Assembly: GCF_056712565.1 (NCBI RefSeq)
Contig: NZ_CM160072.1
DNA: 64,000 nucleotides
Strand: one strand, 5' to 3'
Shown: positions 37,901-40,900 of the stretch, piece after piece
Position numbering within the stretch: the stretch's first letter is position 1
How the letters are laid out: each line of letters opens with the position of its first letter
Program-made: the position numbers

Positions 37901-40900
37901 CATAGTGAGCTACATCAGATGCGGTCGTACACTTGTTCAGCAACTGGTTCAAAAGCCATTGACTCAGCAAGGGTTGACCGTATAATTCACGCGATTACAG
38001 CACACCGTGGTATCAATGCGCCCTTAGCTCAGTTGGATAGAGCAACGACCTTCTAAGTCGTGGGCCGCAGGTTCGAATCCTGCAGGGCGCGCCATTAAAA
38101 TTCAATCAGTTACGCCTTCTTTATTTCTTCTATAATTCCAGAGTGGGACATTATCACCAAAAATGTCGTCTATTTTCCTCGCGTGCTCAGTCAAATGATT
38201 AGGCGCAAGGTGAGCATATCTACGAACCATTTCTCTGGACTCCCATCCGCCCATTTCCTGAAGCACTGATAATGGGACGCCTGACGGAATCAACCTGCTT
38301 GCCCGGGTATGCCAGAGGTCATGGAAACGGAAATTTTCAACTCCTGCACGACGACAAGCTGATAGCCATGCTGTCTTGCTGTCAATGCGCATCTTCCTGA
38401 GCGCAGGCATTGATGTTCCATCTGCTCGCTTAGCCGCCCTGGTATGTACACCCACATTTGTGATGCTTGCCTGTTTGATCATGCAGCACTTTAGAGGCGG
38501 TATCGTTCAGCGCCACACCAATGGCGCGATTTGATTTGCTATCTTCTGGATTCACCCTGGCAACTTGTCGCTGCATGTCAATCTGTTGCCACTCCAGATT
38601 TATGATGTTCGACTTTCTCAGAACAGTTACCAGCGCAAACTTGACGACAGATTTCAGTGGCTTGGGGCTCTCATCAATCAGGCGTTTTTCCTGATTCTTT
38701 TGTAAGTCTCTTGTGCCATTCCACCTCATACAGGTTTGCCTGCAAACAGTACTGATATTGCACCGCCAGATATTCCGGCTGGCTTCGTGGTTGTTTTCAA
38801 CAGTGATGAGGCATCGTGGCATCTCGTTGAAGACCATCGGGGTAAAACGGTTTATGACGTGGCATCAGGGGACGCGTTATTTATTTCTGAGCTCGGTCCG
38901 TTACCGGAAAATGTTACCTGGTTATCCCCGGCAGGGGAGTTTCAGAAGTGGAACGGCACATCATGGATAAAGGATACGGAGGAAGAAACCTCGTTGCTGG
39001 AAGCCTGTAAGATGTATCGGGTGTTGCTGAACCGAGTTGATACATCAACTGCCCCTGATATTGAGTGGCCTGTGAACCCTGTCAGAGAGTAATCATTGGG
39101 ATTATGCCGCAGCACGTCGTGCGCAAGAACGTGCTGCGGCTGGATGCTATTTTTTCCCTGAAGCGGAAAACATTACTACAGTACCTTTAACCTTGGTTTT
39201 AACATTCTCGAAATGCTCTGAGAGTATATGTGTTAAGCCTTCTTCGGAATCTTTTGTGTTTGAAAAGATGCCTTTTTGATTGTAAATGCGCATCAGTTTT
39301 TGACCGAAGCTATTGTGCACAACGCCGTCACCAAGAATTGTGGCTCCGTATAGAGTTCCATCGTCAGTTAAGGCCTGCGCCGCATTGCGTATTACACAGC
39401 TTTTTGTAGATATATTTCCAGGCAGGCAGTGAAGAAGGTAAAACATGGAAATGGAATCAAATTGACCATGTAACGCCGCGGGATAAGGATCAAAAACATC
39501 ATGGCTAATTTTATGTTTAATTTTTGATTCCCCAGCCCTTGTCGATGCCGCGTTCAGGCTAGCTTCGTTCAAATCCATTAAAGATATCAGACTACTCTCA
39601 GGTACGTGAGTAAGGTAAAACCCAGTTCCAACACCAATATCCAGATGGTTGTTACCTAAATGTTCCAGAAAGTGTGGAAGAAGGTGTTCCTTTGTAGGAC
39701 ATCCCCATGCAAGCCGATTTGATACACCCAAAACCCACCAGTCATAAAGCTTTAGGGTAAGTGGTGTGTAAATTTTAGCCCCATCATCTGTGTTTTTTTT
39801 CATTAGTTTCACTATGTTATAGTTTTATTTGTGAATTAAATCAATTATAGCGATGAATTACAAGGGGTTAAATGATGCCACGGCATAACGAATTTGAATA
39901 TATTGAGTCTTGTGTTGCGGTAAGAGGTTACACGCCAGGACGCAGGTTAAATGCTTACAAGATTAGGGGATATTGTTTGCTTTTAACGGTAAACAAATTC
40001 CCCGGGGCTATACAATACCACCGGGGAGAAAATCTATTTAACGTTGTTAAAAGGTGTACTTAAGACCAGCAGTAGTGATGAAGTTATAGTTTTCTATGCC
40101 TGCACCATTTTTGCTGTAGTCAGAAGTGTTATCATTGTGATCATAAAGTGAAGTATTACCTTTTTTATTCGTAACCCGATTCCATGCGCCTTCAACATAA
40201 ACTTTTGCGTTAGGTGTTACGTAATAACCTGCATTGACTGCAACAGAATAGTAATTTTGGTCTTTGACTTTACTGCGATAAGTGATTCTTTTTCCTGGGT
40301 CATAGTGCTCATCGTTATCAGATGCTTCCACCCAGCCGCTGTATTTAAATGTGCCACCTAGCTCAAAATCTTCATAACGATAACTTCCAGTCAAGCCAAT
40401 GTAGGGAATTTTAAAACGTTGTTTGTAGCCGATTGCTCTTTCTCCATTCGGGAAGGAGCCGATATCATCTCTGAATCCCTCCTCAGAACTGTAGATATAG
40501 GAACCACCTCTGGCTGTAAAGCTATAACGGCTTTCCTGATATCCGGCCATGAGTCCCAGGCGGTAATTGGGTTCGTTGAGGAGCCAGCCTTTGATATTCA
40601 GATCAAATTCGTTGGCATAATTGAGTTGTGTATCAGGGTGTCTACTTTCATCCGTCCAGGTTCCGGGGTTACTGGAATCCATCCAGTCCTGATCGACCAT
40701 ATTGCCACCTCGGCTGCCGAGTGTTGTCCAGCCAGCAGCCCCGATAGATATCTGGGGCATCAAATCCCAATTAATTGCACCTTTAATAATTGCAGCGTTA
40801 TTGAATTTCCAGTCAAGTTGACTGACTTTTCGGCCTCCTTCTTCGGCTAGATAAACACGCTCTTTTGTTTTTCCGCTCAGAGTTCCAAGACTAATGTCCG

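Follow-up and report, generated by a model that had tools for sequence, protein, structure and literature searches.

An intact ybcY-type class I methyltransferase gene in a decayed DLP12-type prophage of Escherichia coli

The 64,000-nucleotide stretch of contig NZ_CM160072.1 (NCBI RefSeq assembly GCF_056712565.1) analysed here, referred to below as the window, is 100% identical to Escherichia coli ATCC 11775 (NZ_CP033092.2). It contains a remnant, approximately 3 kb long, of a DLP12-type lambdoid prophage, and the subject of this report is a gene in that remnant, the orthologue of ybcY of E. coli K-12, which is predicted to encode a class I S-adenosylmethionine (SAM)-dependent methyltransferase. 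The elements are arranged in the order tRNA-Arg(UCU), integrase (int) fragment, tail-fibre-assembly (tfa) fragment, hairpin, methyltransferase, 37% GC spacer, ompT, and chromosomal ybcH (Table 1). Among the genes of the remnant, only the methyltransferase gene and ompT are still intact; ompT is the upstream one, at a distance of 234-243 bp, depending on the start codon. The tRNA-Arg(UCU) gene is one that we take to be argU, the DLP12-type attachment site. GC content of the methyltransferase gene is 41%, compared with 52% for the window.

Table 1. Features of the prophage remnant and its methyltransferase gene (positions in the window)
Feature	Position	Strand	Remarks and source
tRNA-Arg(UCU)	38018..38094	+	Left edge of remnant, adjoins integrase fragment; ARAGORN, RefSeq
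Site-specific integrase remnant	38110..38699	-	Frameshifted and truncated; RefSeq
Tail fibre assembly protein fragment	38718..39092	+	Pseudogene lacking the N-terminus; RefSeq
13-bp GC-rich hairpin	39106..39140	.	Perfect inverted repeat between the convergent tfa fragment and methyltransferase; folding
Methyltransferase CDS (ybcY orthologue)	39147..39803	-	218 aa from ATG; RefSeq, PHROG 2132, Pfam
Alternative starts of methyltransferase	GTG 39812; ATA 39815	-	221 aa from GTG; 222 aa from ATA (RefSeq model)
A8 homopolymer	39793..39800	-	Codons 2-4, right after ATG; site of the K-12 lesion and one other frameshift lesion
Sigma-70-like promoter match, TTAACC-16-TATAAT	39844..39871	-	About 40 nt upstream of ATG, in the 37% GC spacer; 10 of 12 match
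ompT (omptin protease)	40047..41000	-	Upstream of methyltransferase, same strand; RefSeq

An uninterrupted open reading frame (ORF) of 221 codons from a GTG start occupies 39147..39812 (-) and encodes the motif DIGVGTGFY, confirming from the sequence what the initial annotation had described. In the RefSeq annotation of ATCC 11775, the coding sequence (CDS) is placed at 39147..39815 and its product is WP_000239877.1, "class I SAM-dependent methyltransferase." The ATG at 39803 is the most probable start, giving a protein of 218 aa, because the PHROG profile is matched from its first to its last position by the protein so defined and most homologues from other genera start at the same Met; residue numbers below refer to this form. 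The RefSeq start codon of WP_000239877.1 (39813-39815, -) is ATA in ATCC 11775, where the other alleles examined have ATG. This G-to-A change additionally weakens a Shine-Dalgarno-like element, GGTGA, that precedes the ATG at 39803.

Profile and motif comparisons agree on the type of enzyme. Three Pfam families matched above their gathering cut-offs (Methyltransf_12, 37.5 against 30; Methyltransf_23, 28.7 against 27; Methyltransf_11, 24.4 against 21.2), and the PHROG family phrog_2132 matched residues 1-218 on profile positions 1-218 of 218 (E 5.8e-156, 517 bits), although its label in PHROGs is "unknown function." Motif I, (D/E)xGxGxG, is present at the end of beta1 as L54-D55-I-G57-V-G59-T-G61; in the broad family G57 never varies, and conservation of G59 and G61 is 90% or higher. 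Acidic residues stand at the end of beta2 and after beta3, where D77 is invariant and D102 is invariant within Enterobacterales. These two residues align with Asp77 and Asp102 of CysG, the contacts of that enzyme to the ribose and adenine of SAM (PMC11408123). Thus, the SAM-binding motifs are all present (D55-G61, D77, D102, and D116/S117). In an AlphaFold2 (AF2) model (pLDDT 91.4), a helical N-terminal lid sits on an alpha/beta core of seven strands that follow the class I methyltransferase order, the last two lying side by side at the C-terminus, and a search of viral structures in BFVD returned generic methyltransferases only. In the explanation favoured below, this class I SAM-dependent methyltransferase is soluble and stand-alone. 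The class I assignment made earlier is therefore supported by Pfam, motifs, and fold alike, and the key SAM-binding residues are in place on alignment. Longer homologues yielded no informative extra Pfam domain; a fusion to RCC1 in a lichen-fungus metagenome-assembled genome was set aside as a possible gene-model artefact.

Phages often carry orphan DNA methyltransferases, and a gene of this kind in a prophage could be one of them, serving anti-restriction or epigenetic control. The sole match among PADLOC defence models was to the MADS mad2 methyltransferase, and it was very weak (E 0.005, 13.7 bits), at the level of noise. Neither form of the DNA-methyltransferase motif IV, (D/N/S)PP(Y/F/W) or PCQ with ENV, occurs in the 218 aa, and its position is occupied by L-H-C-L-P-G, the generic small-molecule "vLHhlpd" pattern. 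The protein has no target-recognition domain and no Pfam DNA-methylase domain, and no DNA methyltransferase was found among its structural neighbours, which are small-molecule enzymes. On this sequence and model evidence, identity as a DNA methyltransferase is effectively excluded, as the initial annotation had argued for the classical type, and an orphan anti-restriction or epigenetic enzyme is exceedingly improbable.

Small-molecule enzymes are also the top neighbours in structure and profile searches. Profile searches of PDB sequences match the core alone (positions 50-153), and the best matches are BelI/CysG, NodS, ToxA, JHAMT, and UbiG (E ~1e-6). Identity to the small-molecule class I enzymes JHAMT, UbiG, NodS, ToxA, RebM, and DhpI is below 21%, and their substrate-binding signatures, such as the (Q/H)W motif of JHAMT, are absent from the methyltransferase. 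BelI and CysG (PDB 9FCE, 9FCD) differ as well; identity is 18%, the alignment covers only the core, and the N-terminal lid is unrelated. They are encoded in beta-lactone biosynthetic clusters, whereas the ybcY-type gene is stand-alone. The named NCBIfam families PmtA, CpaM, and RquA scored 16.8-17.6 bits against cut-offs of 175-390. The alternative that the prophage uses this enzyme to modify a host macromolecule, as an RNA (tRNA or rRNA) or protein methyltransferase, has to be set against these neighbours. In addition, the 218 aa include no RNA-binding or extra domain, no NCBIfam RNA-methyltransferase model matched, and homologues in fungi and many bacterial phyla are singletons without a conserved partner. 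The initial annotation had proposed a small-molecule or a protein/RNA methyltransferase; the first of these is favoured by the data, and the second appears unlikely.

Carboxyl O-methyltransferase CysG binds its catalytic Ca2+ through His122, His123, and Asp191, the HHD motif (PMC11408123). In the ybcY product, H125-C126 align with CysG His122-His123 ("IH(H)L"). The His-His-Asp set of BelI/CysG is therefore incomplete here; the first His is kept as H125, the second is replaced by Cys126, and D185 is the candidate counterpart of Asp191. Because they align with the metal-binding histidines of CysG, H125 and C126 may act as a general base or as metal ligands. This alignment is the sole clue to mechanism that emerged from the analysis.

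Conservation of the family is broad. An alignment of 33 sequences from Enterobacterales and Pasteurellaceae (more than 10 genera) has 61 invariant columns, and an exhaustive profile search returned 413 clusters (50% identity) with E<1e-30. Bacterial members come from Pseudomonas, Dyella, Rhodanobacter, Agrobacterium, Janthinobacterium, Francisellaceae, Acidobacteria, and one planctomycete, and many members are from ascomycete fungi, including Aspergillus, Fusarium, Trichoderma, and Thermomyces. Identity to the query in this broad family is 33-57%, and no source gives any of the members named here a specific functional name. Residues L17, Y20, W33, H53, G57, D77, S117, H125, G153, F180, and D185 are invariant from E. 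coli to fungi, and conservation reaches at least 90% at C35, C126, N175, N182, K134, and Y174. The ratio of nonsynonymous to synonymous substitution (dN/dS) was 0.08-0.19 against phage, O157, and E. albertii alleles and approximately 0.08-0.09 against Citrobacter and Enterobacter. The methyltransferase gene is under purifying selection. Together, the dN/dS of 0.08-0.19 and the 61 invariant columns indicate that the ORF is not a chance one.

Comparison with K-12 shows how the same gene has fared in another DLP12 prophage. The K-12 protein is 98% identical to that of ATCC 11775 over 216 aligned residues (99% DNA column identity), and the gene has the same place between tail-fibre-assembly fragments and ompT; identity and a tfa-ompT position in a prophage at tRNA-Arg(UCU) place the ATCC 11775 gene in the ybcY orthologue group. 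The loci differ in that appY and a tfaX fragment separate ybcY from ompT in K-12, and envY lies beyond ompT; both of these ompT flankers, appY and envY, are missing from ATCC 11775. In the K-12 derivative DH1 the DLP12 orthologue is flagged "frameshifted." The alignment shows the lesion as AATGAAAAAAAAC changed to AATAAAAAAAC (ATG-A8 to ATA-A6, 2 nt shorter), and this loss at the ATG-A8 tract removes the start codon of K-12 ybcY. A further change in the K-12 gene, F121S, affects a nearly invariant residue. The statement in the initial annotation that K-12 ybcY is a pseudogene was thus correct.

Intact copies are the norm in E. coli. The sequence was found in 3841 of 5426 complete E. coli genomes, and the main protein cluster (90% identity) has 6589 member sequences. 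Among nine genomes whose annotation was inspected, the CDS is intact in seven and frameshifted in two, and the full 218 aa are encoded by 47 of 51 evaluable IMG/VR copies. For this reason the intact copy in ATCC 11775 is unremarkable; it is intact, as first noted, but the contrast with K-12 does not set it apart. Both sampled frameshift alleles, K-12 (2 nt shorter) and GPEC1366 (A7), are altered at the A8 tract, and the A7 allele of GPEC1366 may be a homopolymer assembly error. Phase variation at the tract was considered and rejected; the tract is exactly A8 in all 52 of the IMG/VR copies that bear the ATG, so hypervariability is unsupported. The 445 member sequences of a truncated 161-aa variant with a foreign C-terminus point to a lineage-specific disruption. 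In another E. coli variant, of 265 aa, 47 aa of the beta4-beta5 region are duplicated in tandem within the protein.

Putative transcription signals lie on both sides of the gene. The methyltransferase is probably expressed from its own sigma-70-type promoter, for which the TTAACC-16-TATAAT match upstream of the ATG is the candidate. In K-12, RpoD holoenzyme binds the ybcY-tfaX spacer, for which H-NS binding is marked as well (PMC3946193), and silencing of the AT-rich promoter region by H-NS is likely. The hairpin starts 7 nt past the methyltransferase stop codon, with a dG of -26.4 kcal/mol and a z-score of -4.6. A T-run on the + strand begins 9 nt beyond its stem, the - strand lacks a canonical U-tract after it, and a terminator scan of the region gave no match; the hairpin is likely a transcription stop. 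In O157:H7 EDL933, the tag z1926 (tags z1921-z1926) may, by position, denote the methyltransferase or a neighbour. This tag is reported as a candidate direct target of the small RNA (sRNA) Esr055, which influences colon colonisation (PMC5326754).

Decayed prophages can leave silent genes behind, and the methyltransferase could be a selectively neutral leftover that is inactive in ATCC 11775. A remnant of only 3 kb with pseudogenes around the methyltransferase fits such a history, as do the AT-richness of the gene and the H-NS mark on the K-12 spacer, the ATA at the upstream RefSeq start where other alleles have ATG, and the occurrence of independent loss-of-function alleles. However, dN/dS remains at 0.08-0.19 even between near-identical E. 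coli and phage alleles, the catalytic and SAM-binding motifs are all intact, and the downstream ATG, the start used by most homologues, is also intact. Intact copies prevail in the sampled genomes and viral contigs described above, and the same two-gene remnant of ompT and ybcY was reported in a published survey for CFT073, UTI89, 536, J96, ABU83972, and E2348/69 (PMC6854850). Because of the selection signal, a neutral remnant is improbable.

Active phages carry the same gene. Fifteen phage records contain the methyltransferase at 98-99% identity, and gp26 of lambdoid phage ev243 and the proteins of 2G7b, Kati, Turner, and the PhiR phages show the same identity. In ev243, Kati, and 51 IMG/VR contigs, the gene is always convergent with Tfa/Lom, and its position in phages is always that of the first leftward gene after the tail-fibre/Tfa/Lom module. 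Phage copies of phrog_2132 resemble the ATCC 11775 copy in being convergent with tail fibre genes and in having ompT and int upstream; they differ in belonging to complete, inducible phages, whereas the ATCC 11775 copy lies in a remnant. Cargo upstream of or adjoining the phage genes is variable and includes an alpha/beta hydrolase, ompT, appY, Pin invertase, and yciGFE-katN. The order ompT to methyltransferase also occurs in phage ev243 and in an O157 prophage, and the description of the gene as prophage cargo beside ompT is borne out by this shared cassette. In uropathogenic (UPEC) and enteropathogenic (EPEC) E. coli, an ompT arrangement without appY and envY is associated with low OmpT activity (PMC6854850). 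The ompT-ybcH spacer of the window (41001-41657) has 36% GC and no envY.

Homologues beyond E. coli and E. albertii are chromosomal singletons; those with 35-57% identity come from Proteobacteria, Acidobacteria, and ascomycetes. All ORFs within 4 kb on each side were clustered for 80 species-representative loci, and no neighbour family common across genera was found in them except a ubiquitous short-chain dehydrogenase/reductase (SDR); a lambdoid Tfa gene was nearby in one of the 80. Salmonella STM1638 and other enterobacterial chromosomal homologues have 57% identity, all of the motifs, and the same partnerless, single-gene character. They differ in being chromosomal, beside cybB/rydC in Salmonella and beside dcp-ydfG in Citrobacter and Enterobacter. 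STM1638 directly adjoins the sRNA gene rydC (loci L004 and L005, around 6663-6934), which is probably coincidental. RydC is an activator of cfa, the gene for cyclopropane fatty acid synthase, another SAM-dependent enzyme (PMC11340327).

Manganese catalase genes adjoin the methyltransferase in two settings. In O157:H7 prophage CP-933X (L020, 3337-6716), the genes yciG-yciF-yciE-katN come after it on its own strand, and the Mn catalase KatN has been reported as a type VI secretion system (T6SS) effector (PMC5363993). In the Pseudomonas cichorii group (L010, L046, L051), the homologue is directly downstream of genes for DUF892, Mn catalase, and DUF6388. These striking juxtapositions look independent but are rare overall. 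The yciGFE-katN operon was rejected as a general association; among the 80 species-representative loci 2 show it, as do 2-3 of the 51 IMG/VR contigs, and given this rarity no functional link is assumed. A small DUF6388 gene lies about 30 bp upstream of the Pseudomonas homologue in L010-L014 and in ten species-representative loci (within L045-L069). The ten loci are mostly from P. syringae, P. viridiflava, and P. cichorii. An enoyl-CoA hydratase gene lies downstream of the homologue. DUF6388 may be a genus-specific operon partner in Pseudomonas; no literature on it was found.

The explanation we favour, with a probability of roughly 60%, is that the gene encodes a small-molecule methyltransferase and is a moron gene of lambdoid phages, with its own promoter, in a decayed DLP12-like prophage. 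A lambdoid phage lineage would have captured the methyltransferase from the enterobacterial gene pool and kept it as an accessory "moron" gene; the gene lies where the tail-fibre module ends and is encoded on the other strand. In ATCC 11775 the DLP12-like prophage at tRNA-Arg(UCU) has decayed to approximately 3 kb. The enzyme is expected to transfer its methyl group to a metabolite or xenobiotic, at O, N, or S, rather than to DNA, and its acceptor is presumably a small molecule. The acceptor pocket may be formed by conserved lid residues (Y12, Y20, D21, W33, and C35) together with the YNxKGIFxNxxD loop. A lysogen could gain a conditional benefit, for example through detoxification or a stress-related modification.

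Several observations weigh against this explanation. The gene has been inactivated independently in K-12, in GPEC1366, and in the truncated 445-member variant, and losses in several lineages imply that it is dispensable. Promoter matches in the region are no more numerous than expected from shuffled sequence. The median isoelectric point (pI) of the family, 8.9, is compatible with nucleic-acid binding. A few family members have Thr, Ser, or Val in place of C126, and C35, too, is exchanged in a few, which rules out an obligatory catalytic role for either Cys. Searches of Pfam, NCBIfam, PHROGs, PADLOC, PDB sequences, and the literature turned up no characterised relative, in agreement with the initial annotation. 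The initial annotation had set its proposal against that of a widely conserved, already characterised enzyme; the wide conservation, from bacteria to fungi, is there, but the characterised member is not.

A bolder proposal is that the YbcY family is a new type of metal-assisted small-molecule methyltransferase, captured by lambdoid prophages as a lysogenic-conversion enzyme that modifies or detoxifies a widespread metabolite or toxin. It is suggested by the invariant His and near-invariant Cys at the catalytic-metal position of CysG/BelI, which are retained from Proteobacteria to ascomycetes, and it would imply a niche-specific advantage to the host alongside OmpT. We consider it quite unlikely and speculative. 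The data give no hint of a new kind of system. Public databases already list the gene, the name of its product, the phage family, and the K-12 copy as a pseudogene.

This methyltransferase gene is among the commonest uncharacterised prophage cargo genes in E. coli, its sequence being present in approximately 70% of complete genomes. The practical value is modest. K-12 is a natural null for ybcY, and gain-of-function metabolomics should therefore be easy to set up. Because the family is strongly conserved and reaches into fungi, knowing what it methylates would allow thousands of genes to be annotated together.

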